Positions 1-40,099 of a stretch of DNA of 44,244 nt are shown piece after piece. The stretch spans positions 1-44,244 of the forward strand of contig JACQLN010000007.1 in assembly GCA_016204035.1 (NCBI GenBank). The letters are read 5' to 3'. This DNA comes from Parcubacteria group bacterium. Lineage in GTDB: Bacteria; Patescibacteriota; Minisyncoccia; JACQLN01. Every line of letters starts with the position of its first letter. Positions within the stretch are counted from its first letter, which is position 1. Below the pieces are notes generated by a model. It was not told the origin of the DNA. It ran no database searches and was given only the letters and a program-made list of their open reading frames with translations. The translations under genes and the position numbers were made by a program.

Positions 1-976
1 AATTAAGCCAGCCGAAGGCGCTGTTGTTTTCAATAAATTCGGCGACACTGCCAGCCGGCTGGTTAAACCCGCTTTTTTTTAAGTATGAATTTATCTCCGC
101 CAACCGCGGGAAAATAACGCTTTCTTCTGAATTTACCAAAGTAAAACTGGAAGTGCTTAATAACTTGGCGTTAAAACTGTTAAAAGCCGAGGCCACAAAA
201 TTGTTTTTTCCGGAAAATAAAAACGCTCCGGCGCTTAAAGGCACCACCAGTATAAAAAAAGCGGCCAGATACGTTCTAAACTTAAATCCATCGTTTTCTC
301 CGGAAGATTCGGTTTCTTTGTCTTCGGCTTTTCCTTGGAAACTCCTCCGCCTTTTAGCCAGTTCCTTAAGTTCAAAAATCCTTTCCGGGGCCGACAAGCT
401 GACGCGGAACCAGTCGTCTTCAACCCTAAACTGATCTTGTTCCGGCTGATCAAAAGGCGCGGCCGGCCAATCCGGCGGCGCGATGTTGAGTTTTATTTCA
501 ACCAATCCGTCATTTTTAATTGGATCAGCTTCCCTGTTTAAGGCTAAATCCGGGTAAACATCGCGCCGAGGCGGTTCAATTCGGCTGAATTTTTTTATCA
601 GCTCCGCGTCTTTTTTATCTATATTTTCCAGTTCGGCCAGAATCTTTTCGCGCGAATTTTCGGCAAGCACGGGAGTGTTTTTAATAAAACTGCGTTCAGC
701 GCTCAGCAACTGGCCAAACTGATGGTGCGGCTTTTTTTTAGTGAATATGGCCCGGGTTAGCGGATCCGCCGATTCATTAGTAATAGCCAGATCAGCTGGC
801 CACACCGGTTCGCTCAAAAGGTCAAATTCCAAAACATCCGGCTCCGGTAATTCCTCTTCATTATTATAGATTAGAGATTTTATTTTTTTAACTTTAATTC
901 TGCCGGAAGCAACGGAATTGGCAGCGCGGCGAGGCGGAATTTTATTGGGATTTATAAAAACAAAATCCGAACTCAT
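1..976 (-). CDS. Hypothetical membrane-anchored protein. The N-terminal ~325 aa are visible and the 3' end runs off the left edge.
   Basis: My own translation from the ATG (reverse complement of cat at 974-976) gives MSSDFVFINPNKIPPRRAANS... and stays open to base 1. It has one hydrophobic span (YLAAFFILVVPLSAGAFLF). It is absent from the ORF track because there is no stop codon inside the window. Confidence 0.6.
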   Translation of the reverse strand, partial: MSSDFVFINPNKIPPRRAANSVASGRIKVKKIKSLIYNNEEELPEPDVLEFDLLSEPVWPADLAITNESADPLTRAIFTKKKPHHQFGQLLSAERSFIKNTPVLAENSREKILAELENIDKKDAELIKKFSRIEPPRRDVYPDLALNREADPIKNDGLVEIKLNIAPPDWPAAPFDQPEQDQFRVEDDWFRVSLSAPERIFELKELAKRRRSFQGKAEDKETESSGENDGFKFRTYLAAFFILVVPLSAGAFLFSGKNNFVASAFNSFNAKLLSTSSFTLVNSEESVIFPRLAEINSYLKKSGFNQPAGSVAEFIENNSAFGWLN

Positions 977-1100: not shown

Positions 1101-1427
1101 TTCTGTTAAGAAAGCCGTAAGCCGAATTCTGTGCCAATTTGTCCTGTGAGTGTGCTAACACGAACAGCTGACAAAATGAGCACCCGCCAAAACTTTTGAC
1201 AAGCAAAAGTTGGGCGGGTCGTCAATTTTGTAGTCGCTCGTCAAACTCGCGAACAAAATTGCGATGATCATTCATCTGGGATCCCGATCGCTCGGAACCT
1301 CTAGCGACTCTTCCGCGATAATAACTGTCATTATCGGGACACGGTCTTGCACCAAGTGGGGTTTACAACCGATCAGTATCGCTACTGACCGAAGTCGCGT
1401 TTGGCGCGACACTTTTCACCTTTTGCC

Positions 1428-1499
1428 GAACCGCAGACGACGCTGACCTTACGCTGACTACGCGGAATTACTTCCGTGTTGATCCGCGTTTGATCTGCG
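1428..1499 (-). repeat. 72-nt repeat unit inside rnpB, copy 1 (P12 position)
   Basis: Near-identical to 1610-1682. Contains GTTGATCCGCGT and internal inverted repeats. Confidence 0.9.
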
Positions 1500-1609
1500 T
1501 GATTCAGCGGCTGGTTAGTATAGTCTCTGTTGCGAGCGCTCACGAAATCAGCTGACATCCATGAACGCACCTCCAACGTTATGTCGGAGACTTTCCCTGG
1601 GCTTCTTCC

Positions 1610-1682
1610 AAACCGCAGACCGACGCTGACTTTACGCTGACTACGCGGAATTACTTCCGTGTTGATCCGCGTTTGATCTGCG
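1610..1682 (-). repeat. 73-nt repeat unit inside rnpB, copy 2
   Basis: Direct repeat of 1428-1499 with a 1-nt indel and about 2 substitutions. Confidence 0.9.
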
Positions 1683-1937
1683 TCTTCCGCGATATGGGTT
1701 ACTCCCGGTTGCATTTCGCAACCACTTTTTTGCCAATTTCATCTGAAGCGTTAGCGAAGCTATGAAATTGAGCACCCCGCGAAGCCCGTTAGGGCGAAGC
1801 GGGGTCCACCGTCGCTAAAGCTATGGTGGACGCTCAATTTTGTAATTGCTCGCCAAGCTCGCGAACAAAATAGGCGGTGTTCGGACTTTCCTCTCCAACG
1901 CAACGTCGGAGCGATCATCTCACTTTCTTAACATTTT

Positions 1938-1966: not shown

Positions 1967-2041
1967 AACATGGGTATCGGATATGTATCTTAACCTAAAC
2001 AACCTAGATCAGCGGGGTCAAATCTTTCCGATTATCACCCA

Positions 2042-2085
2042 TATCTTACTATCAACCATACGATCGTATGATAAATAGTAATATA
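2042..2085. promoter_or_regulatory. 44-bp palindrome centred on CATACGATCGTATG, downstream flank of the wHTH-Cas2-like gene
   Basis: A perfect 14-bp palindrome lies at 2057-2070. The outer arms TATCTTACTAT and TAGTAATATA are symmetric. Confidence 0.85.
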
Positions 2086-2125
2086 TAATCAGATCTAAAA
2101 ATAGCATGGTTTAGTAAATTTATAA

Positions 2126-2659
2126 CTAAAATATATCAATAGTACCTTTTTTATCAACACTCACTATATGAACTTTACCTTGAAGTCTTAAATCTTTCAA
2201 AGATTTAAGAAAATCCTCCGGCAAAGGACTATACCCAATCCAAACACTCCTTTGAAGTTGACTATAACCACAACCAGTTAATTCATCCCTTATCAAATCC
2301 CTTTTTCTTCTTTCCATTTCGGGAATATCATACATCACCAACCGTGGAATACCGTCTGGTTTAATTGCTTTCTTAAAATTCAAACCGACACTAATTTTTT
2401 CCTTGCCTTTTGGTGTTAAAACCCAACTAGCCCAACGCCGATCACTTTTTTTAGCTATAAGACCTTGCTGACGTAAACGAGTAAGCACAGCCGAAAAATT
2501 AGGCCGGGAAAATTCATAACCATCGGGCAACCCTAAAACTCTACGCCACATTTTACCCTCAACGCGATTACGCGGGAACAAACTTTCTAAAGATAATTCC
2601 CCAACTTCAGAAATTTTCTCTAAGACAATCCTGGAAAAATTTTTAACTTTATCATTCAT
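2126..2659 (-). CDS. Winged-helix (PaaX-like N-terminus) fused to a Cas2-like ferredoxin-fold domain; paralog 1
   Basis: 177-aa ORF. The C-terminal part, IPRLVMYDIPEMERRKRDLIRDELTGCGYSQLQRSVWIG, matches the Cas2 beta1-alpha1-beta2 signature (hhhhYDI...R..l...L...G...lQ.SVa). The N-terminal ~95 aa look like a wHTH domain. Roughly half the residues are identical to the 39506-40033 product by eye. Confidence 0.7.
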   Translation of the reverse strand: MNDKVKNFSRIVLEKISEVGELSLESLFPRNRVEGKMWRRVLGLPDGYEFSRPNFSAVLTRLRQQGLIAKKSDRRWASWVLTPKGKEKISVGLNFKKAIKPDGIPRLVMYDIPEMERRKRDLIRDELTGCGYSQLQRSVWIGYSPLPEDFLKSLKDLRLQGKVHIVSVDKKGTIDIF

Positions 2660-2678
2660 TTTTTTAATCCTTAATATC

Positions 2679-2721
2679 TATATTACTACTTTATTACGAT
2701 CGTATAAAGTATAGTAAGATA
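2679..2721. promoter_or_regulatory. 43-bp palindrome centred on TACGATCGTA, upstream flank (putative operator) of the wHTH-Cas2-like gene
   Basis: Core at 2695-2704, 36 bp upstream of the start codon. The arms mirror those of the 2042-2085 site. Confidence 0.8.
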
Positions 2722-2780
2722 GATTATGCATAATATGTGTTGGGTATATATGTCGAGTATATTTGAATACAGACACTGTC

Positions 2781-2815: not shown

Positions 2816-3090
2816 TTCGGTTCTTTTCCGACAATATAATAGACGGGGGCATGCAAGACGTGAGTAGGAATCCAGTGATCTCCGCCTTGTCCCTTTACTG
2901 CCAACTGCGGCACTGCATTGGTGATACACCCTTTAGCAAGGATCCTGCCGGCGTACGATCTTCGTCGTCGTCATCATTTCGATCGTCTCCGCTTAGCTTC
3001 AACCTTTTTAAGAGAAGGTGCTTTTACAGAGTGCCGGCATCACGAATCCATTGGAAGGGTTGGATTCCATTCCAAGGCGCCCCCGTCTAT
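2782..3090 (-). ncRNA. Candidate structured non-coding RNA of unknown class (~300 nt)
   Basis: This 450-bp gap has no credible ORF. A 12-bp perfect long-range helix joins ATAGACGGGGGC (2839-2850) to GCCCCCGTCTAT (3079-3090). Several nested complementary pairs follow (GGAAUCCA/UGGAUUCC, GCCGGCACU/AGUGCCGC, CGCCUUG/CAAGGCG). It ends at the terminator above. Strand assignment is tentative. Confidence 0.35.
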
Positions 3091-3113
3091 ATCCTGCTTA
3101 AAAAGAACACAAA

Positions 3114-3566
3114 TTACAATAATTTCTCGCTTTCTCCTTTGCCGTCCAGCGCCTGGTTGACCAGTTCGTCGGCCCGTTTATTGGCTTCACGCGGAATTGA
3201 TTTAAAAATAAGCTTACCGAAATCAAACTTAAGATTCCAGACCTTCATGAACAACACCTGCATTCTTTCTTCGTTAACCTTGTATTCACCGGCCAGTTGC
3301 GAAGCGATAAGTTCGCTGTCTACCCTAAATTCCACCATCAAATTTTTGGTTTTTTCTTTGCCAAAAAATTGTTTCAATTTTTTCAAAGCAAAAATTACCG
3401 CTTCGTATTCGGCTTCGTTGTTGGTGGAAATATCTTCCAGTTTAGCGCCGTATTCTTTTAATTTTTGACCGGACTCGTTTAATACCACCACGCCCACCGC
3501 CGCCGGGCCGGGATTACCCCTGGAACCGCCGTCGGTATAAACAATGATTTTAGAGTTTTTAATCAT
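3114..3566 (-). CDS. rnhA: Ribonuclease HI
   Basis: MIKNSKIIVYTDGGSRGNPGPAA...NNEAEYEAVIFAL...VDSELIASQL...REANKRADELVNQA is a typical RNase H1 motif set. The start was moved to M37 of the track ORF because the upstream part covers a repeat element. Confidence 0.85.
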   Translation of the reverse strand: MIKNSKIIVYTDGGSRGNPGPAAVGVVVLNESGQKLKEYGAKLEDISTNNEAEYEAVIFALKKLKQFFGKEKTKNLMVEFRVDSELIASQLAGEYKVNEERMQVLFMKVWNLKFDFGKLIFKSIPREANKRADELVNQALDGKGESEKLL

Positions 3567-3576
3567 GAAATATATA

Positions 3577-3662
3577 AGAAACATCGTCCCGAGCGGCTCA
3601 TGGAGATGACCGAGACTACAATTGAGAGGCCTCCATGTCGTCCGCGGAGGGACGATGTTTCT
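3577..3662. repeat. Structured intergenic element, type 2 (CATGGAG core), copy 1
   Basis: Closing stem AGAAACATCGTCCC/GGGACGATGTTTCT (14 bp), inner stem CATGGAG/CTCCATG. Lies 5 nt 3' of the recJ stop codon. Confidence 0.85.
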
Positions 3663-3667
3663 GGAAT

Positions 3668-5428
3668 TCAACAAGAAGTGGTTCTGACACTATCCAGTTT
3701 TTTATAATCAACAAGCTTTAATTGTATCTCCTTACTGTCGTTCCATTCATTTTCATCCAATTCGTAAACCACATCTAAAGTGTCGCCGATTTTGAAATCT
3801 TCGGCAAGTCCGTTGTGCCGGAAAAATAAAATCGGAAATTCTTTGCCGGTTTTTTTATCATGGGCGAAAATTTTAAGATGAGCTCCGTTTTGCCCCAATA
3901 AAACCAGTTTTCTAACCTCAACATTTTTGGTTAAAAACCTGGGTTTAGGATTAGCCAGGCCAAACGGTTCAAATTTTTCCAGCAAACCCATTAAATCCCA
4001 GTTGATTTCGCCAAAAGAAACTTCGGCGTTTATATTCAGCTTTTTTCTTAATAATTCCGGAGTTAAAACTTTTTGGGCGTACTCGTTTAATTTTTCTCTT
4101 ATCGTTTCTTCGTCTTCCGCCTTAAAAGTAGAGCCCGCGGCCGCCGGGTGGCCGCCGTATTTTACCAAATATTTAGAAACATAATTGAGGGCATCTATTA
4201 AACTGAAACCGTTTACACTGCGCAACGACCCCCGGCACAAGCCATCGTCTCTTTTTTCAAAAATAAGCGCTGGCCGGTAATACTTTTCCGAGGCCTTAGC
4301 CGCGACCAAGCCGACCAAGGTCAGCGGCCAAGCCGGAGATCCTTCCATTATAAATATGGGAATTTGAGAACGCTTTAATATGGCGACATCAAGTTCTTTT
4401 AATATTTTTTCCGTAATCCGCTGGCGTTCGCGGTTGTTCTGGTTCAAAGTTATTACCAGTTCTTGAATTTTAGATTCGTCGGGAGAATTCAAAAGTTCGT
4501 AAGCCAGATTGGCATGGGCCATGCGACTGGCCGCGTTCAAACGCGGGCCCAAAGAAAAACCCAAAGTCATGGCATCCAAATTGGTTGATAACGTTTCAAG
4601 GTTGTGCCGGGCTTTGATGCCAGACGACTCCATAAGCATTTGCAAACCGACCCTTTTTGTTTTAGCTAGAACAAAAAGCCCGTATTTAACAAAAACCCTG
4701 TTTTCGCCCAGCAGCGGCACCATATCGGCCACCGTGGCCAGAGCCACCAAATCTAAAAGCCATTTGCTTTTACCCTCCGAAGCTTTATGCGTAGGAGGGC
4801 TACTTTGAGTCAAACCGAGATACAGCTTAAACGCCAGGCCGGTGCCGCACAAATCCTTAAACGGATAACTATCGCCTGTTTGGTGCGGATTTATGAAGGC
4901 CGCCGCGGCCGGCCGGCCGACAATAACCTTATGATGATCCACCACGATCATATCTACGCCGCGGTCTTTAGCCCATTGCACTTCTTTATTATTGGTAGTG
5001 CCGCAATCCAAAGTTACAATCAAGTTGGCGCCGGCCGCGGCCAACTGTTCCAGAGCATTCTGATTAACCCCATGTCCTTCTTTCTGCCGGTCAGGTAAGT
5101 AGATCTCGAAAGGATAATTTATACCCCTAAAATACTCGCTTAAAACCGTGGCCGCCGAAACACCGTCCACATCGTAGTCGGAATAGATAACAATTTTTTC
5201 TTTGGCCAGAACGGCCTTATGGATGCGTTCGCAGGCCAACCGCATGTCTTTTAATAAAAAAGGGTCGTGGAGATCCCGTTCGTACTCCGGCTTAAAAAAC
5301 CGATCTATTTTTTCGGCGCTATCCAAACCGCGCTCCCAAAGTAATTGGGGTATAATCGAAAAATATTGCTTAAATTCGGACAAAAAGTCAGAAGGTGGAG
5401 CAGGCGATAAATCCCAACGGTATTTCAT
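3668..5428 (-). CDS. recJ: Single-stranded-DNA-specific exonuclease RecJ
   Basis: 586 aa, with DHH (YSDYDVDG, DHH) and DHHA1 (GGHPAAAG) motifs. Confidence 0.9.
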   Translation of the reverse strand: MKYRWDLSPAPPSDFLSEFKQYFSIIPQLLWERGLDSAEKIDRFFKPEYERDLHDPFLLKDMRLACERIHKAVLAKEKIVIYSDYDVDGVSAATVLSEYFRGINYPFEIYLPDRQKEGHGVNQNALEQLAAAGANLIVTLDCGTTNNKEVQWAKDRGVDMIVVDHHKVIVGRPAAAAFINPHQTGDSYPFKDLCGTGLAFKLYLGLTQSSPPTHKASEGKSKWLLDLVALATVADMVPLLGENRVFVKYGLFVLAKTKRVGLQMLMESSGIKARHNLETLSTNLDAMTLGFSLGPRLNAASRMAHANLAYELLNSPDESKIQELVITLNQNNRERQRITEKILKELDVAILKRSQIPIFIMEGSPAWPLTLVGLVAAKASEKYYRPALIFEKRDDGLCRGSLRSVNGFSLIDALNYVSKYLVKYGGHPAAAGSTFKAEDEETIREKLNEYAQKVLTPELLRKKLNINAEVSFGEINWDLMGLLEKFEPFGLANPKPRFLTKNVEVRKLVLLGQNGAHLKIFAHDKKTGKEFPILFFRHNGLAEDFKIGDTLDVVYELDENEWNDSKEIQLKLVDYKKLDSVRTTSC

Positions 5429-5506
5429 ATTTATAAGTCGGCATCATTCCGAACAACTCTTCAGCCCGGCTCCGGGCAGGGTTCAAAGAGGTTAGGATAA
5501 TAAAAG

Positions 5507-5592
5507 AGAAATATCGTTCCGAGCTGCCTCATGGAGATGACCAAGACTACAATTGAGAGGCCTCCATGCCGGCTGCGAGGAACGATGTTTCT
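5507..5592. repeat. Structured intergenic element, type 2, copy 2
   Basis: AGAAATATCGTTCC/GGAACGATGTTTCT closing stem. The core is about 85% identical to 3577-3662. Lies between pgk and recJ. Confidence 0.85.
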
Positions 5593-5627
5593 CGAATGTT
5601 GGGTGGAGCAAAGAATGACGCTGACAA

Positions 5628-6803
5628 TCAAGATTGATTTTCCAACGCAATAATCCCGGGTAATTCTTCTCCAGCTAAAAATTCCAGCATGGCTCCGCCG
5701 CCGGTGGAAACGTAAGTCATTTTATCTATTAAATTTTCTTCGGTCAAAAAACTTATTAAATCTCCCCCGCCGATTATTTTCTCGCCACGGCTTTCGGCTA
5801 CCGCCTTAGCCACCACCAGCGACCCTTTTTTGAAAGCGGGAACTTCGGTCAGACCCAGCGACCCGTTCCAAATAATCATTCTGGCACTTTTTATAACTTT
5901 TTCAAAAAGAGCCATGGTGTCGGGGCCAATATCAATAATAAATTCATTTTCTCCAACTCGCCCGATCGGCCGCACATTCAAACCATCCGGTCGATTCAGC
6001 GACCGGGAAACAGCCACGTCCACGGGCAGATGCAGATGATTGGAAACTATATCCATTTTTCTTGCCTCACTTACCAGATTTTCATCCACCATGGATTTAC
6101 CCACGGCGAGACCGCGGGCATAAAGCAGGGTGTTGGCCAAAACTCCCCCCAAAAGAATACCGTCCGATTTATCCAAAAACTCCTTAACTAATTTTAATTT
6201 GGTGTCGGCCTTGGCTCCGCCCATTATCAGCACCAGCGGCCGGCGGGGTTGGGCGCGAACCATGGATAAAACGGCTATTTCTTTTTCCAGTAAAAAACCG
6301 GCGTATGATTTTAAGAATTTGGGCAAGCCGACAATGGAAGCGTGAGCGCGGTGCGAAGCCGCGAAAGCGTCGTTAACAAACACATCGCCGTAAGCGCTTA
6401 AACTTTGGGCGAAAGTTTCGTCGTTGGCTTCTTCTTCTTTATAGAAACGAAGGTTCTCCAGTAAAACAGCCCCGCCGTTTTTTAAGTTATTGATTGCTCG
6501 TTCCACAGCAGCGCCTAAAACATCATGGCTGAAGAACAAATCCGCTAGCCACAGTTTTTTAAGCTTTTCAAAAACGGGGTACAAACTATAGTGAAGATCA
6601 TGGCCTCGGGGCCGGCCCAGATGCGCCAAAATAATTATTTTGGCGCCGGCTTGGGCCAAATAATCAAGCGTCGGCACAACCGCGCGAAGCCGCCACTCCG
6701 ACCCCGCCGGCACTTCGCCTTCCTTTATGGGCACGTTAAAATCCACCCGCACCAAAACTTTCTTGCCTTTAACATCACCTATAGATTTTAGAGAAGGCAA
6801 CAT
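5628..6803 (-). CDS. pgk: Phosphoglycerate kinase
   Basis: 391 aa, with VRVDFNVP and GGGDxxx motifs and a full-length PGK layout. Confidence 0.95.
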   Translation of the reverse strand: MLPSLKSIGDVKGKKVLVRVDFNVPIKEGEVPAGSEWRLRAVVPTLDYLAQAGAKIIILAHLGRPRGHDLHYSLYPVFEKLKKLWLADLFFSHDVLGAAVERAINNLKNGGAVLLENLRFYKEEEANDETFAQSLSAYGDVFVNDAFAASHRAHASIVGLPKFLKSYAGFLLEKEIAVLSMVRAQPRRPLVLIMGGAKADTKLKLVKEFLDKSDGILLGGVLANTLLYARGLAVGKSMVDENLVSEARKMDIVSNHLHLPVDVAVSRSLNRPDGLNVRPIGRVGENEFIIDIGPDTMALFEKVIKSARMIIWNGSLGLTEVPAFKKGSLVVAKAVAESRGEKIIGGGDLISFLTEENLIDKMTYVSTGGGAMLEFLAGEELPGIIALENQS

Positions 6804-7673: not shown

Positions 7674-8705
7674 TTATGTTTTTATTCCCCTTAAATACTC
7701 CGCGGCTTCGTCGGGATCCACGTCTATCACCTCGCCGCCGGTGCCCAGTTCAAACCCGCCCCAAATGTTGAGCCGCGGGTTTATTTCCAGATGCCAATGG
7801 TAATAGTCGTATTCGTGGTCGCGTTCGGCCGGCGGGGTATGTATAAAAAAATTGTAAGCGGGGTTGTTTAAGCCGTGGTAGATCTTGGCCAAAGAAATTT
7901 TTAAGGCCTCGGCAAAATCAACCGTTTCGCCGTCGCTTATGTTTTCAAAATAGGATTGGTGCGTTTTGGGAAAAATCCTGACTTCGTAGGAAAACCTGGG
8001 CACGTACGGCACCACAGCCACAAAAGATTTGTTTTCAAAAATAATCCTTTTTTTCTCTTTTAATTCCCATTCTAAGATATCGCAGTGCACGCACCGGCCC
8101 CTTTCTTCTTTATATTTTCTGGAACCCTCCAAACTGCGGCGAACATCGGCCGGTATAAACGACAAAGCCATTATTTGCGAATGGGGGTGCGAGATGGACG
8201 CGCCGGATGGGCGGCCGTGATTATGAAATATCAAAATGTAATCGACGCACATTTTTTGCGACAACTCTAAATACCTTTCCCGATACACTTTTATTATCTG
8301 CCCCGCCTCGGCAACTTCCAGTTGGGCTAAAGACCGGCGATGATCCTTAAACACCACCACTTCGTGGTAGCCGGCATTGTCTTTAACTAAATATAGGCCT
8401 TCTTTTGATTCGGCGCGGCAGTTTTGCCCCTCCATAATGGGAAATTTATTTTTCACCACCTGAACCGCCCAACCGCTTCCATCAGCCAAAGGATATGTTT
8501 TAATCACCTCGTTGCCGTGTTCTTTGGGGTTTTCAAAAGGGCAAAGATTGATTGGGGTTTCACGTTCCGGGGTTCCGGACGACTTAAAGGCCTCCGGGCG
8601 TTTAGCCCGGCCGGTGGAAATTACCACCCAGTCCCGGCCAACCGGATCCTGGCGGAGCTCCGAAATATCTTTAGTTTTTTTATTGTTCACAAAAAAATCA
8701 TTCAC
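7674..8705 (-). CDS. galT: Galactose-1-phosphate uridylyltransferase
   Basis: 343 aa with a CPFC-type Zn site (CPFENP) and the HIT-like HPHSQI active-site motif. Confidence 0.85.
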   Translation of the reverse strand: MNDFFVNNKKTKDISELRQDPVGRDWVVISTGRAKRPEAFKSSGTPERETPINLCPFENPKEHGNEVIKTYPLADGSGWAVQVVKNKFPIMEGQNCRAESKEGLYLVKDNAGYHEVVVFKDHRRSLAQLEVAEAGQIIKVYRERYLELSQKMCVDYILIFHNHGRPSGASISHPHSQIMALSFIPADVRRSLEGSRKYKEERGRCVHCDILEWELKEKKRIIFENKSFVAVVPYVPRFSYEVRIFPKTHQSYFENISDGETVDFAEALKISLAKIYHGLNNPAYNFFIHTPPAERDHEYDYYHWHLEINPRLNIWGGFELGTGGEVIDVDPDEAAEYLRGIKT

Positions 8706-26961: not shown

Positions 26962-27059
26962 TCCGCGGTAGCTCAGAGTGTTGAAGGTACCTCTTCAACC
27001 GGCAGAGCCGCCAGCCGCGAGCTGGCAGGTCGGTGGTTCAAGTCCACCCCGCGGAACCA
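26962..27059 (+). tRNA. tRNA-Arg(GCG)-like gene with a 20-nt hairpin inserted in the D-loop and C at position 33
   Basis: Manual fold. The acceptor is TCCGCGG/CCGCGGA with A73 and an encoded CCA. The D stem is GCTC/GAGC, with the hairpin at 26980-26999 inside the loop. The anticodon stem is GCCAG/CTGGC with loop CCGCGAG. The variable loop is AGGTC and the T arm is GGTGG-TTCAAGT-CCACC. Confidence 0.7.
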
Positions 27060-27096: not shown

Positions 27097-27113
27097 AATC
27101 ACCTGTCTTTAGA

Positions 27114-27863
27114 AAGGGCGGTCCTTCCCATAAATTTCCTAAGAATTTTCATTATTTTTATAAGAAAGCCAGTCAAAAACAAAATCTTTGAAGATTCTCT
27201 TTGAACCAAAATAATCCGGAAAAACTTCAGTATTCAAAATTTTCCTTTCCAATCTTTCAATACCAATATAATCAAAATAACTTGAGTAACTGTAATCACT
27301 CAAAAATTTCTGCGCAGCAAAACTATTCTTAATACCAATCTCTTTCCAGTTAGATTCTATCAATTTAATAGGATTCAAATGTATGTAGGCGAAAACATAC
27401 TTTAAATATTCATCTTTACTAATATGTTTTGCCTGAAACCTGCTTTGAAACAAGGAGCCGTCGCGCTCATATTTTTTATTGAAATACATAGAATAGCCAG
27501 TGGATACTTTACCCATAAATTTAGAAACACCTCCGACTTCTGTTTCTTTTACAAGTAAATGAAAATGATTCGGCATGAGTACATAAGCGCCTAGAGCAGT
27601 AATAAGGTCACCAGTATCTATGGACAGAATATCCCGGAAGGACCGCCCTTCCTGAATATGCTCTGCAATATCAACAGGATTGTTGCTATTGCAGAGATAA
27701 AGAAGCATTAAAAAACGTCTATAATCCATATCTGAACCAAATATAAACCTCTTATCTACACCCCGATTATAGATGTGATAATATTCATCCAAAGAAAAAT
27801 CAAAACCACGTTCCATATAACCTATTATAATCCCTTAGGAAATTTATGGGAAGGGCGGTCCTT
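27114..27863 (-). mobile_element. IS200/RAYT-like unit: a Y1 transposase gene bracketed by composite repeats
   Basis: A 17-bp perfect inverted repeat is present: CCCATAAATTTCCTAAG (27127-27143) with CTTAGGAAATTTATGGG (27834-27850). A 13-bp direct repeat AAGGGCGGTCCTT lies at 27114-27126 and 27851-27863. Confidence 0.65.
27139..27816 (-). CDS. IS200-like / REP-associated tyrosine (Y1, HUH) transposase
   Basis: 225 aa: YHIYNRG, HUH motif MPNHFHLLV, catalytic Tyr region YIHLNP. TATAAT lies 7 nt upstream of the ATG (leaderless). Confidence 0.8.
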   Translation of the reverse strand: MERGFDFSLDEYYHIYNRGVDKRFIFGSDMDYRRFLMLLYLCNSNNPVDIAEHIQEGRSFRDILSIDTGDLITALGAYVLMPNHFHLLVKETEVGGVSKFMGKVSTGYSMYFNKKYERDGSLFQSRFQAKHISKDEYLKYVFAYIHLNPIKLIESNWKEIGIKNSFAAQKFLSDYSYSSYFDYIGIERLERKILNTEVFPDYFGSKRIFKDFVFDWLSYKNNENS

Positions 27864-27869
27864 TTTAGA

Positions 27870-30442: not shown

Positions 30443-31504
30443 TTACTCTTTGGGCGTAGTTGCATACTCTTTGGCGGCTAAAAGTTCGCGGTATTTTTCG
30501 GTTTCTTCCAGCACAATGCCGGTGCCGCGAGCCACCGCGGTCAACGGGTCTTCGGCCACTTTTACGGCAATGCCGGTTTCTTTGTTTATCAATTCGTCTA
30601 TGCCTCTTAACAAACTGCCGCCGCCGGCCAGCACAATACCCCGCTTCATAATATCGCTTAAAAGTTCCGGCGGGGTTTGCTCCACTATCTCGCGCACCAC
30701 ATCCACCAAAGTTTTTACCGATTTCGTTATAGCTCTTTTCACTTCTTTAGACGTAACCACCACTTCTTTAGGCAGACCGGTAATAAGATCGCGGCCGCGC
30801 ATGGTGGTTTCCAGCTTTTCATTCAGATCCACCACGGCCGCCACCGCTATTTTAACATCCTCGGCCGTGCGCGGGCCTAAAAGCAAGTTGTATTCATCGC
30901 GGGCCAGCTGGATAATATCTTCATTCAGCCGTTCGCCGGCCACCCTTAAACTGCGCACGGCCACCAAACCGCCCAAAGATATCACCGCCACCTCGGTGGT
31001 GCCGCCGCCAATGTCCACAATCATGTTGCCCAGGGCCTCCTGAACCGGCAAGCGCGCGCCTAAAGCCGCGGCCACCGGCTCTTCTATAAGCATAACCTCC
31101 CGCGCGCCGGCGTTGCGGGCCGCTTCTTCCACCGCTTTTTTTTCCACCTCGGTTACGCCGGAAGGAATGCCTATCACCACCCGCGGCCGGGGCACCATAT
31201 AAAAAGAGTCGCCGTGGACTTTCTGAAAAAAATACTTAAGCATCTGTTCGGTAATATCAAAATCGGAAATCACGCCGTCCACCAGCGGTTTTACGGCGGC
31301 AATATGCCCGGGCGTGCGGCCGACCATTTTTCTGGCCTCGCGACCTATGGCTAAAATTTGTCCGGTCTTTTTGTTAATTGCCACCAACGAGGGCTCGTTA
31401 ATGACAATACCCCGGCCCTTAACATAAACAAGGGTGTTGACCGTTCCCAGATCAACACCGATGTCTTTGGCAAAATGACCAAACAGTCTATTGAGTAGAT
31501 ACAT
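30443..31504 (-). CDS. mreB: Rod shape-determining protein MreB (paralog 1)
   Basis: Actin-fold motifs DIGVDLGTVNTLVY and DIGGGTTEVAV. The start is set at MYLLNRLF (M12 of the track ORF). Confidence 0.9.
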   Translation of the reverse strand: MYLLNRLFGHFAKDIGVDLGTVNTLVYVKGRGIVINEPSLVAINKKTGQILAIGREARKMVGRTPGHIAAVKPLVDGVISDFDITEQMLKYFFQKVHGDSFYMVPRPRVVIGIPSGVTEVEKKAVEEAARNAGAREVMLIEEPVAAALGARLPVQEALGNMIVDIGGGTTEVAVISLGGLVAVRSLRVAGERLNEDIIQLARDEYNLLLGPRTAEDVKIAVAAVVDLNEKLETTMRGRDLITGLPKEVVVTSKEVKRAITKSVKTLVDVVREIVEQTPPELLSDIMKRGIVLAGGGSLLRGIDELINKETGIAVKVAEDPLTAVARGTGIVLEETEKYRELLAAKEYATTPKE

Positions 31505-31566
31505 ACTTAAATTCGAAATCCCAAATCCGAAATCCAAAACAATATCTAAATACTAAATTATAAACC

Positions 31567-33109: not shown

Positions 33110-33367
33110 GTGGCTAGAAGTGAAGGAAAACCTAAACAGCAGGTTGTGGATGCCACAGCTTTCGCCGCATGTGTCCTAATGGAAAAACTGGACAAGCTTC
33201 TGTCCGCAAAATTGGCGGGTTGGGGTTGTCACAGCCGTGGCTTCCACTTCGTGGTATTGTTTGTCTGCGAGATGTCTGTGGATGGTTCTTTTTTAATCAG
33301 ACCAAAAAATATCAACACGCCGGCTGCTAATTTTATGCGAGACCTTTTAGCTAAACAGCGCTCCTGA
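33110..33367 (+). CDS. Hypothetical protein (GTG start)
   Basis: 85 aa. GGGAG lies 7 nt upstream and a very strong terminator follows. It is on the opposite strand to all its neighbours. Confidence 0.45.
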   Translation: MARSEGKPKQQVVDATAFAACVLMEKLDKLLSAKLAGWGCHSRGFHFVVLFVCEMSVDGSFLIRPKNINTPAANFMRDLLAKQRS

Positions 33368-33373
33368 CTGAAT

Positions 33374-33409
33374 CCCCCAAGATGGCGATCGCCATCTTGG
33401 GGGATTTTA
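33374..33409 (+). terminator. Rho-independent terminator (30-bp perfect palindrome)
   Basis: CCCCCAAGATGGCGATCGCCATCTTGGGGG followed by ATTTTA. Confidence 0.8.
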
Positions 33410-38359: not shown

Positions 38360-39364
38360 TTACCTTTTAGCAAACAACGCCCGCTTATATAATTCCAAAT
38401 TTTCCAAAGCCACTCCCGTGCCTTTGGCCACGCAAAAAAGCGGCTCATCGGCCACATAACAAGGCACGCCGGTTTCTTGAATTATTAAACTATCTAGGTT
38501 CCTTAATAAGGCCGTTCCCCCCGAAAGAATCATACCTTTATCCATAACGTCGGCGGCCAGTTCCGGCGGCGTTTCTTGCAACACTTTTTTAACGGTTTTA
38601 ACCACTTCACCCAGAGTGTCTTTTATGGCTTTAGGAATTTCGTTGGCATGGAGTTCTATGGTTTTAGGCAAGCCGGCCACCAGATCGCGTCCTCTTATTT
38701 CTAAAATTTCTTCTTCTTTTTGGAGAATGGCCGAGCCTAGAGTGATTTTTATTTGTTCGGCGGTGCGCTCCCCCACGGCTAAATTATGAACCTTATGGAT
38801 GTAATTTTGAATAGCCGCGTCTAGGGCGTTGCCGCCCACCTTGGCCGAAGCCCAAGCCACAATCCCGCCCAGCGATATCACCGCCACCTCGGTGGTGCCG
38901 CCGCCGATGTCTATAATCATATGCCCCGAGGGCTCGTTGATGGGAATGCCCGCGCCCAGAGCCGCCAGGATCGGCTCTTTGACCACATAAGCCGCTTTGG
39001 CTCCGGCTTTGAGCGTGGCTTCCACCACCGCCCTGCGCTCGGTGGAGGTTATGCCGGCTGGCACGGCCACCATCACTTCGGGCCTAAAAAAGCTGAACCG
39101 GCCGGTTATTTTTTTAATAAAATACCGGATCATGGCTTCGGTTATGCGGTAGTCGGCAATAACGCCATCCCTAACCGGCCGCACGGCCATAATGCTTTCA
39201 GGCGTGCGCCCGATCATTTCCTTGGCCGCCGCGCCCACCGCCATAATTTTATTATCATCCAAACTTACCGCCACCACCGAGGGTTCGTTGATGATAATGC
39301 CTTTAGGCGGCACATATACCAACGTATTGGCCGTGCCTAAATCTATGCCTATTTTGATTGCCAT
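38360..39364 (-). CDS. MreB/Mbl actin-like protein (paralog 2)
   Basis: 334 aa: IGIDLGTANTLVYV, IIDIGGGTTEVAVISL. Confidence 0.9.
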   Translation of the reverse strand: MAIKIGIDLGTANTLVYVPPKGIIINEPSVVAVSLDDNKIMAVGAAAKEMIGRTPESIMAVRPVRDGVIADYRITEAMIRYFIKKITGRFSFFRPEVMVAVPAGITSTERRAVVEATLKAGAKAAYVVKEPILAALGAGIPINEPSGHMIIDIGGGTTEVAVISLGGIVAWASAKVGGNALDAAIQNYIHKVHNLAVGERTAEQIKITLGSAILQKEEEILEIRGRDLVAGLPKTIELHANEIPKAIKDTLGEVVKTVKKVLQETPPELAADVMDKGMILSGGTALLRNLDSLIIQETGVPCYVADEPLFCVAKGTGVALENLELYKRALFAKR

Positions 39365-39452
39365 ACGGGATCATACTAGCACTGGAAATGTTTTTTTCAA
39401 ATATTCTTAAACCATATTCTTAAACCATCTAAAAAATCATTTCTGCCAATTC

Positions 39453-39500
39453 TTTATTCCCATACATCTCATACGATCGTAGAAAATATGTTAGAATAAA
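39453..39500. promoter_or_regulatory. 48-bp palindrome centred on TACGATCGTA, upstream flank (putative operator) of wHTH-Cas2-like paralog 2
   Basis: Core at 39472-39481, 25 bp upstream of the ATG. Outer arms are TTTATTC and GAATAAA. Confidence 0.8.
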
Positions 39501-39505
39501 ATAAT

Positions 39506-40033
39506 ATGAAAGTTAAGAAAGGTTTGGTTACAAAATTCATTCTTGAGAAACTAGCCGAGGTAAATGAGTTGGCTCTGGAAGCCATGTTCCCCAGAAACAG
39601 GGCCGAGGGCCGGCTCTGGAGAACAATTTTTGGCCTACCAGCATATTATGAATTTTCTAAAGATAATTTCTCAGCGACATTGAGCCGGCTAAAGAGCCAA
39701 GGTTTAGTGGATAAATTAGGTGGTAAAAAATATGCCAAGTGGCGTTTAACACTCAAAGGTAAAAATAAACTTGGTTCTCTTAAAATGGACTTAATTAAAC
39801 CCGATGGAATTCCACGGTTGGTGATGTACGATGTTCCCGAAAAAGAAAGAAGAAAAAGGGATTTATTAAGATTAGAACTGGTAGCTTGTAACTATCAACA
39901 ACTTCAAAGAAGTGTCTGGCTGGGTTATTCTCCCTTGCCAGAAAAGTTCATACAGAGTTTAAGAGATCTTGGTCTTAAAAATAAGGTTCATATTGTAAGT
40001 ATTAATAAAACCGGAACTTTATCGGAGTTTTAA
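39506..40033 (+). CDS. Winged-helix plus Cas2-like domain protein; paralog 2
   Basis: 175 aa. IPRLVMYDVPEKERRKRDLLRLELVACNYQQLQRSVWLG is colinear with the 2126-2659 product. Confidence 0.7.
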   Translation: MKVKKGLVTKFILEKLAEVNELALEAMFPRNRAEGRLWRTIFGLPAYYEFSKDNFSATLSRLKSQGLVDKLGGKKYAKWRLTLKGKNKLGSLKMDLIKPDGIPRLVMYDVPEKERRKRDLLRLELVACNYQQLQRSVWLGYSPLPEKFIQSLRDLGLKNKVHIVSINKTGTLSEF

Positions 40034-40043
40034 GTATATTCTA

Positions 40044-40099
40044 AAATCTTATTCTTATATATTCATTACGATCGTATGATATGTATATGAATAAGATTT
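40044..40099. promoter_or_regulatory. 56-bp palindrome centred on TACGATCGTA, downstream flank of paralog 2
   Basis: Core at 40067-40076. Perfect outer arms are AAATCTTATTC and GAATAAGATTT. Confidence 0.85.

Follow-up and report, generated by a model that had tools for sequence, protein, structure and literature searches.

A gene for a PaaX-family protein with a Cas2-like domain and its flanking palindromes in Patescibacteria: a probable autoregulated repressor with two operators

The stretch of DNA considered here (contig JACQLN010000007.1 of the Parcubacteria group assembly GCA_016204035.1, 44 kb in length and hereafter called the window) carries two paralogous genes, cassette 1 (W1) and cassette 2 (W2), whose products are 60% identical and each of which is bracketed by two long palindromes (Table 1). 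An earlier note on this DNA had described the product as a winged helix-turn-helix (wHTH) region joined to a Cas2-like domain, had taken it for an autoregulated DNA-binding nuclease that recognises its own borders, and had envisaged a toxin–antitoxin-like module or a small mobile cassette. The surroundings of the two genes are ordinary housekeeping genes (TIM, PGK, RecJ, RuvX, Adk, RpoD, DnaG, SSB, RecA, FtsK, MreB/C and Frr), and their GC contents (0.365 for cassette 1 and 0.375 for cassette 2) lie below those of the other coding sequences of the window (0.41–0.52). A search of the window for CRISPR arrays was negative, and Pfam scans of 30 open reading frames (ORFs) of the window returned neither cas families nor a recombinase, in agreement with the earlier statement that cas1, any other cas gene and a CRISPR array are all missing here.

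Within the window, every copy of the palindrome flanks one of the two genes. The 10-mer TACGATCGTA occurs as an exact match only at 2059, 2695, 39472 and 40067, that is, once on each side of each gene, which confirms the bracketing by a common core; when one mismatch is allowed, five matches are obtained versus 0.6 expected, a number reached in 0/100 shuffles. The 8-mer ACGATCGT, called the core below, is found four times in the 44 kb versus 0.4 expected, at the same four places, and the number of solo sites in the window is zero. The outermost arms of cassette 1, TATCTTACTAT (2042–2052) and ATAGTAAGATA (2711–2721), are exact reverse complements, as had been claimed. The distances of 36 and 56 bp given earlier hold approximately for the interval between the 10-nt core and the start and stop codons (35 and 57 nt), not for the ends of the palindromes, which come within ~19 nt of the ATG and ~40 nt of the stop codon. 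On its far side, the downstream palindrome of cassette 1 sits ~75–120 bp upstream of the promoter of rnpB. An Rfam scan of the window at gathering thresholds gave no matches, so that no described RNA family explains the palindromes.

Table 1. Features of the window, with positions counted from its first nucleotide; the two cassettes and their palindromes are given first, other features below
Feature	Position	Strand	Description
Cassette 1 gene	2126–2659	−	ORF, 177 aa; PaaX family, two domains
Cassette 1 protein domains	residues ~8–90 and ~104–170		wHTH and Cas2-like, respectively
Cassette 1 upstream palindrome	2676–2724		dyad 2699/2700; core ACGATCGT at 2696–2703; arms ATATTACTAC and ATAGTAAGATA; outer arms 92% complementary
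Cassette 1 downstream palindrome	2041–2086		dyad 2063/2064, 62 nt past stop; 23-nt arms 83% complementary; 18/22 symmetric
Cassette 2 gene	39506–40033	+	paralog, 175 aa
Cassette 2 upstream palindrome	39453–39500		dyad 39476/39477, 29 nt before ATG; 71% complementary
Cassette 2 downstream palindrome	40044–40099		dyad 40071/40072, 38 nt past stop; 28-nt arms 79% complementary; 16/22 symmetric
Tandem repeat	39401–39428		13-nt unit ATATTCTTAAACC, ×2.2
rnpB (RNase P RNA)	~1207–1925	−	directly downstream of cassette 1
rnpB promoter	1967 and 1939	−	TTGACC and TATCAT
rnpB CR-I motif	near 1880	−	GAGGAAAGTCC
rnpB, part matching RF00010	1207–1627		57 bits (gathering score 100)
ORF in rnpB	1382–1714		
Unannotated segment	2788–3113	−	~300 nt, between RNase H and cassette 1
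Intrinsic terminator	2818–2788	−	strong; end of the preceding segment
tRNA-Gly (ARAGORN)	26962–27059		98 nt, anticodon ACC
Y1_Tnp gene	27139–27816	−	IS200/RAYT-like, PF01797; inside the interval 27110–27867
Y1_Tnp inverted repeats	27110–27143 and 27834–27867		34 nt; third copy intragenic, 27636–27656
MreB paralogs	30443–31537 and 38360–39364		within 8 kb
GC-rich palindrome	33365–33405		AATCCCCCAAGATGG-CGATCG-CCATCTTGGGGGATT, then T-run

The cassette protein is a truncated member of the PaaX family, called mini-PaaX below, in which a wHTH is followed by a Cas2-like domain and the ligand-binding C-terminal domain of PaaX is lacking. PF20803, the Pfam family of the central Cas2-like domain of PaaX proteins (PaaX_M), matches both paralogs (E 1.3e-14 and 2e-13; 54.5 and 50.4 bits for a cutoff of 24) and is present in 41/41 homologs. 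An AlphaFold2 (AF2) model of the cassette 1 protein (pLDDT 76) consists of a winged helix (H-H-H-beta-beta), a linker and a C-terminal domain of beta-alpha-beta-beta-alpha-beta topology, so that the architecture proposed earlier is borne out. In whole-chain Foldseek comparisons the best PDB matches are E. coli PaaX (8a39) and the PaaX-like protein 3l09, spanning 172–183 columns, with Cas2 chains aligned to the C-terminal half; when the C-terminal domain by itself is made into a profile and run against the PDB, Cas2 chains are retrieved exclusively. The wHTH gives weak sequence matches, to MarR, HTH_27, BlaI/MecI and PadR-type profiles. The cassette 1 protein stops at residue 177, directly past the Cas2-like domain, and thus misses the C-terminal helical effector domain of PaaX (PaaX_C); TIGR02277, the NCBIfam equivalog for full-length PaaX, scores 17.9 bits for a cutoff of 264.55.

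What mini-PaaX has in common with Cas2 is the ferredoxin-like fold and the alignment of its family motif FDIPE...R...LQKSVW with the beta1 Asp and the Q-x-S-V-F motif of Cas2, D111 being aligned to the FD/YD of Cas2 chains 6jhz, 3exc and 6qxf. Among 96 diverse members of the family, three residues alone do not vary, D111, R120 and S138; all are in the Cas2-like domain, and two of them, D111 and S138 (the Ser of Q-x-S-V-F), stand at Cas2 signature positions. Nevertheless, the protein is not a stand-alone Cas2 and does not look like a CRISPR remnant, since the window has no array, its 30 scanned ORFs include no cas gene and the region is a housekeeping one; moreover, it is fused to a wHTH and remains below the thresholds of the Pfam and TIGRFAM Cas2 profiles (PF09827, 19.7 versus 23.8; TIGR01573, 23.6 versus 24.5). 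The PADLOC defence library returns weak Cas2 models only, the PHROGs phage library no meaningful match, and PF01797 (Y1 transposase) does not match the cassette proteins.

PaaX, the repressor of phenylacetate catabolism in E. coli and Pseudomonas, shares with mini-PaaX the succession of a wHTH and a PF20803 domain, the latter described in PaaX as a dimerisation module (PMC9493321). It represses its own promoter, Px, and its operator in E. coli is TGATTC-N27-GAATCA (PMC9493321); like the mini-PaaX site, it consists of two inverted half-sites ~33 bp apart, the two kinds of site measuring ~39–44 bp in all. The E. coli sequence could be located at the E. coli paaA promoter, where its centre is AT-rich. 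The opinion that no described system has the layout seen here is therefore not tenable, because the two-domain architecture is that of PaaX (PF20803, 8a39) and the long-spaced palindrome fits the PaaX operator. However, mini-PaaX is without the C-terminal helical domain, a reported phenylacetyl-CoA binder, and no paa genes lie near its genes, neither in the ORF scans of the window nor among the neighbours in 80 family loci; its sites have the invariant ACGATCGT at their centre instead of the AT-rich centre of the E. coli Pa site, they flank the gene on both sides, several paralogs occur per genome, and the 80 best genome loci are nearly all from Patescibacteria. A more distant likeness, limited to weak wHTH profile similarity, links mini-PaaX to BlaI/MecI, MarR and PadR, which are dimeric autorepressors acting on palindromes that overlap their own promoters; mini-PaaX differs from them in its Cas2-like dimerisation domain and in a putative operator of far greater length, with a third recognition element at its centre.

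The family is large and uncharacterised. With E ≤1e-10 as limit, an exhaustive profile search returned 2,292 clusters (50% identity); the proteins of the top 150 are all short, mostly 170–214 aa, some being fragments. Most matches are unnamed metagenome proteins, and the nearest homologs with a source name come from Sungbacteria, Parcubacteria and Liptonbacteria; source labels vary between hypothetical, PaaX and ‘Cas2’, the last of which, where NCBI applies it to family members, is probably a misannotation. Diverged paralogs, often two to four per genome, each have their own arm type. The family-wide comparisons below rely on the 80 best genome loci (L001–L080), nearly all from Patescibacteria, which together with the two of the window make 82. 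No conserved partner gene (antitoxin, cas or recombinase) was found in the 80 loci, where the neighbours are varied housekeeping genes, and nothing speaks for the single-chain toxin–antitoxin module envisaged earlier. In one locus (L066, positions 2823–6005; likewise L062 and L070), four palindromes of the same type alternate with three co-oriented genes, for a PaaX-like protein, a 475-aa protein and MurI, with sites on both sides of each.

The two-flank layout is a property of the family. The 82 loci hold 132 palindromic CGRYCG sites, of which 115 are no more than 300 bp away from an end of the gene (upstream in 55 cases, downstream in 60) and only 17 are in the other ~415 kb, and 0/25 intragenic CGRYCG sequences are palindromic. 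With a relaxed threshold, sites are present on both flanks in 64/82 loci; their dyads are found 11–97 nt before the ATG and 14–152 nt past the stop codon, mostly within 75 nt. When 138 sites are superposed on their dyads, three zones emerge: positions 1–4, which make up the core ACGATCGT, are essentially invariant throughout the family; positions 5–11, a 7-bp spacer, have a symmetry of only ~55% and vary from one copy to the other at a given locus; and positions 12–20, the 9-bp arms, are 75–94% symmetric with a sequence that is locus-specific (for example, TGTTAACAA, ATCAACAA, TCTTAACA and GTGTGACAG). The arm centres are ~16 bp on either side of the dyad and the whole site measures ~44 bp, a geometry that, judged on the sequences, is PaaX-like. 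Pairing in the spacers amounts to 4.0/8 positions versus 3.1 for the null, in an unbiased set selected on arms and core only; G:T wobble makes up 43 of 195 arm mismatches (22%), and 5/56 sites are perfect palindromes. An invariant core, weakly paired spacers, a wobble fraction that does not dominate and arms that are symmetric yet locus-specific point to a protein that probably touches duplex DNA in three places rather than to a conserved hairpin.

The upstream site is so placed that its occupation could affect transcription of the gene itself. Upstream of the family genes (L001–L080), Shine–Dalgarno-like motifs are nearly absent and the end of a TANNNT hexamer falls exactly 6 nt upstream of the ATG in 21/62 loci, versus ~3–4 at a typical other position (range 1–7), which together suggest leaderless or very short-leader transcripts for these genes in Patescibacteria. 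This presumptive −10 is located either inside the promoter-proximal arm or 31–38 nt from the dyad, and in the latter case the −35 would fall in the arm; the upstream site thus overlaps the predicted −10 or −35 of its own gene, the classical arrangement of autorepression. In cassette 2, the right arm of the upstream palindrome, TGTTAGAAT, reads as an extended −10 lying 8 nt before the ATG, and a leaderless transcript is again suggested by its position. In cassette 1, the promoter-proximal arm holds TAATAT, a −10 candidate, followed by AAGGA and the ATG, and a further promoter-like sequence, TTTAGA-17-TATACT, is found at 2784–2756 on the minus strand, the upstream palindrome being located between it and the Shine–Dalgarno sequence and ATG. 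As to the downstream site, it is present in 26/32 loci in which the next gene is convergent versus 26/45 in which it is co-oriented. A role as operator of the next gene was considered and rejected, the site being at least as frequent with a convergent next gene, and for this reason it is treated as part of the module.

The reading preferred here, with a probability of roughly 0.6, is that each cassette encodes an autoregulated dimeric repressor served by two flanking operators. Cas2, too, works as a dimer placed along duplex DNA when in complex with Cas1. A dimer of the cassette protein would occupy the ~44-bp tripartite palindrome, its two wHTH domains contacting the locus-specific 9-bp outer arms and its Cas2-like dimer being seated at the dyad, over the invariant core. 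We infer this assignment of domains to parts of the site because the Cas2-like domain and the core are the most conserved elements, whereas the wHTH and the arms are variable; indeed, the sole invariant residues are in the Cas2-like domain and the sole invariant DNA is the core. Binding to the upstream site would shut down transcription of the gene itself, repression being preferred to activation, and the downstream site could serve as a second operator: either the two sites would be joined by a cooperative loop that encloses the ~600-bp gene, or the downstream one would form a roadblock or insulator where the transcription unit ends. A few other sites with arms of this type, in intergenic DNA close by, may be further targets of the protein. 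The earlier proposal of autoregulation through the gene's own borders finds support in the promoter overlap, and the product most plausibly recognises the palindromes that border it.

The further sites deserve attention, as they show that the palindrome is strongly associated with the gene without being exclusive to it. Ten extra sites occur in the ~415 kb of the genome loci, all in adjacent intergenic regions, and share the arms of the local module at 9.3/10 positions versus 4.5/10 for those of other modules. A metagenome scan with the pattern of the commonest arm type, GTTAACA-N8-ACGATCGT-N8-TGTTAAC, retrieved 75 sites on 65 contigs; these are intergenic, with dyads typically 37–63 nt past a stop codon, and in four contigs (L082, L124, L138 and L142) the site is 74 bp upstream of a tRNA-Pro gene. 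The earlier statement that all copies found border a gene of this kind is consequently valid within the window and fails elsewhere; across related genomes the sites are concentrated at the flanks of the gene, and solo copies exist. In another contig (L099), two direct repeats of 112 nt (3511–3622 and 8594–8705; 91% identical), each with a family palindrome, lie 5083 bp apart and enclose a thymidine kinase gene and ORFs of no assigned function, with no recognisable mobile-element genes between them.

Several observations weigh against the repressor model. Only 12 of the 75 scanned sites adjoin a family gene, while 33 are solo (at least 800 bp away) and 30 are too close to a contig end, and the sites with a gene called on either side are found between convergent (22), divergent (9) and tandem (24) genes; such a preference for convergent pairs and for positions just past stop codons is unusual for promoter operators. 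These counts are approximate, as some contigs are redundant between samples and the naive ORF calling put one locus or more in the wrong class. Protein and site are matched to each other on the grounds of adjacency and co-variation; mutual information between residues and arms located no recognition residues, column entropy and phylogeny dominating the signal, and no helical phasing between the two flanking sites was detected. It is also true that a repressor without a ligand domain and chiefly targeting itself has no obvious physiological output, and that invariant Asp, Arg and Ser of the Cas2 type are unnecessary for a pure dimerisation scaffold, so that a metal-dependent activity on the core is conceivable.

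This last point leads to the alternative in which the Cas2-like domain is an active nuclease or nickase, guided by sequence to cleave at ACGATCGT or close to it, and the module is a selfish or conflict element, REP/RAYT-, homing- or addiction-like (REP, repetitive extragenic palindrome; RAYT, REP-associated tyrosine transposase), which we regard as unlikely. The enzymatic part of the earlier note finds some support in the family-wide invariance of the Cas2 beta1 Asp, and more generally in the fact that D111, R120 and S138 are the sole invariant residues and include two Cas2 signature positions; on the other hand, the counterpart domain of PaaX is described as a dimerisation motif (PMC9493321). 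Like REPs and RAYTs, the system has cognate palindromes on both sides of the gene, further intergenic copies mainly past gene 3′ ends, and several diverged paralogs per genome with their own repeat type; the low GC of the genes (0.37 versus 0.41–0.52) and the hairpin-flanked Y1 transposase gene that occupies the RNaseH-rnpB slot of a relative (L146) would also suit a selfish element. Yet mini-PaaX is not an HUH/Y1 enzyme, Cas2 chemistry would provide no covalent intermediate for transposition, its solo sites are sparse (~10 in ~415 kb and none in the window), its spacers keep no hairpin, and its sites are intact and conserved rather than scarred; furthermore, a true Y1_Tnp gene is present elsewhere in the window, bordered by inverted repeats that belong to it. 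No recent spread is seen either: the paralogs, at 60% identity, are old and keep their synteny in different genomes. The window and two relatives (L001 and L004) have in common the order PGK-RecJ-RNaseH-[module]-rnpB, and the identity of these relatives to the window is ~60% for the module protein, 62–64% for RecJ and 76–81% for RNase H. This conserved synteny, together with a module divergence like that of the adjacent RecJ, indicates that the cassette 1 module was inherited vertically. A more specific version, in which a Cas2-like dimer carrying the invariant Asp, Arg and Ser cuts or nicks the ACGATCGT core of palindromes that bracket its own gene and are dispersed in the genome, and which would amount to a partnership of a Cas2 homolog with repeats outside CRISPR, is distinctly less probable still.

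Mobility could also come from outside, if the palindromes were recombination sites akin to attC, pdif or att and the gene a cassette moved by a site-specific recombinase of the host, but this we hold to be very unlikely. Two copies of one site do bracket the gene, near-identical direct copies exist at a few loci (L046 and L009), arrays of the form site-gene-site-gene-site are found in L066, and the module is present at the RNaseH-rnpB junction in the window (W1), L001 and L004 and absent from L147 and L148. In these last two, however, RNase H is beside rnpB with neither the module nor a solo site at the empty position; together with the Y1 transposase of L146, they show the RNaseH-rnpB slot to be variable over long time scales. 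The relative orientation of the flanking sites is unbiased (21 direct, 18 inverted and 9 equal), no direct-repeat or hybrid insertion signature was detected at them, no recombinase was seen in the ORF scans of the window, and the module has diverged to much the same degree as the adjacent RecJ (~60% and 62–64% identity). No relatives of the family were found in searches of viral contigs and phages, and the only plasmid matches are two distant ones in Streptomyces (24–27% identity), which tells against selfish and recombination readings alike. The mobile cassette of the earlier note finds no support, given the conserved synteny, the lack of a direct-repeat signature, the want of phage relatives and the distance of the plasmid matches; mobility of a cassette or REP-like kind is a possible reading and not the favoured one. 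There is, finally, the view that the palindromes fold into hairpins, of RNA or of a single DNA strand, within the untranslated regions at the 5′ and 3′ ends and work there as stabilisers, terminators or processing sites for the Cas2-like (RRM-like) domain, for which we see hardly any likelihood. The promoter-like sequence of cassette 1 at 2784–2756 would put the entire upstream palindrome in the 5′ untranslated region, downstream and solo sites lie 14–75 nt past stop codons, arm mismatches have a slight sense-strand G:T excess (43 versus 22), and 5/56 sites are perfectly palindromic. Against this, the spacers are mostly unpaired (4.0/8 versus null 3.1) and wobble accounts for 22% of arm mismatches; the core is kept as a sequence and the arms as symmetric patches, a protein–DNA pattern; at many loci the −10 is inside or downstream of the upstream site, which would then not be transcribed whole; and a T-run after the sites was not consistent in the examples judged by eye, no systematic scan having been made. 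Owing to the weak complementarity of the spacers and the minor part of wobble, the hairpin was rejected as main explanation.

If the repressor reading is right, its interest lies in the organisms as well as in the protein. Patescibacteria are ultra-small bacteria with tiny genomes and almost no characterised regulators, and a large family would here gain a predicted cognate DNA site and promoter arrangement. ‘Orphan Cas2’ calls in these mostly CRISPR-less genomes are probably PaaX-like DNA-binding proteins, and the joint conservation of the DNA core and of a Cas2-type residue triad, neither of which varies, suggests how PaaX-type regulators may sit on unusually long operators. Should the enzymatic reading be true instead, a Cas2 homolog would be acting on palindromic repeats outside CRISPR, in a selfish, REP/RAYT-like or self-delimiting element; this could bear on the origin of Cas2 and of repeat recognition and would be of much greater interest. 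Searches of the literature for PaaX together with Cas2, Cas2-like winged helix proteins, PaaX in Patescibacteria and CGATCG palindromes found no description of the module. What appears to be undescribed in the searchable literature is the family-wide placing of an operator on either side of the gene, as well as the invariance of the ACGATCGT core, arms that are specific to each paralog, solo sites located where genes end and the size that the family reaches in Patescibacteria.

Other features of the window are of independent interest. The rnpB gene downstream of cassette 1 has a conserved promoter and CR-I motif; its match to Rfam RF00010 is below the gathering score and covers only part of the gene, which is seemingly over-long, with insertions and an internal duplication. 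The unannotated segment between RNase H and cassette 1, at whose end a strong intrinsic terminator is found, could correspond to a small gene or to a non-coding RNA; relatives have a similar-sized but non-homologous segment at the equivalent position, with a 105-aa ORF in L149. A short tandem repeat abuts the upstream palindrome of cassette 2 on its upstream side.

Farther along, the Y1_Tnp gene adjoins a tRNA gene and its product shares 36% identity with the Y1_Tnp located in the RNaseH-rnpB slot of L146, where AACGACATTCGATGTCGTT hairpins flank it. The neighbouring tRNA-Gly has an unusual length and anticodon and may be a tRNA with an insertion or intron, or a miscall. After an 85-aa ORF, a near-perfect GC-rich palindrome followed by a T-run resembles an intrinsic terminator; it has the CGATCG centre in common with the family sites, and not their tripartite architecture. 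An MreB gene near a PaaX-like module, as in the window with its two MreB paralogs, is also seen in L041, L050 and L069, in differing arrangements.

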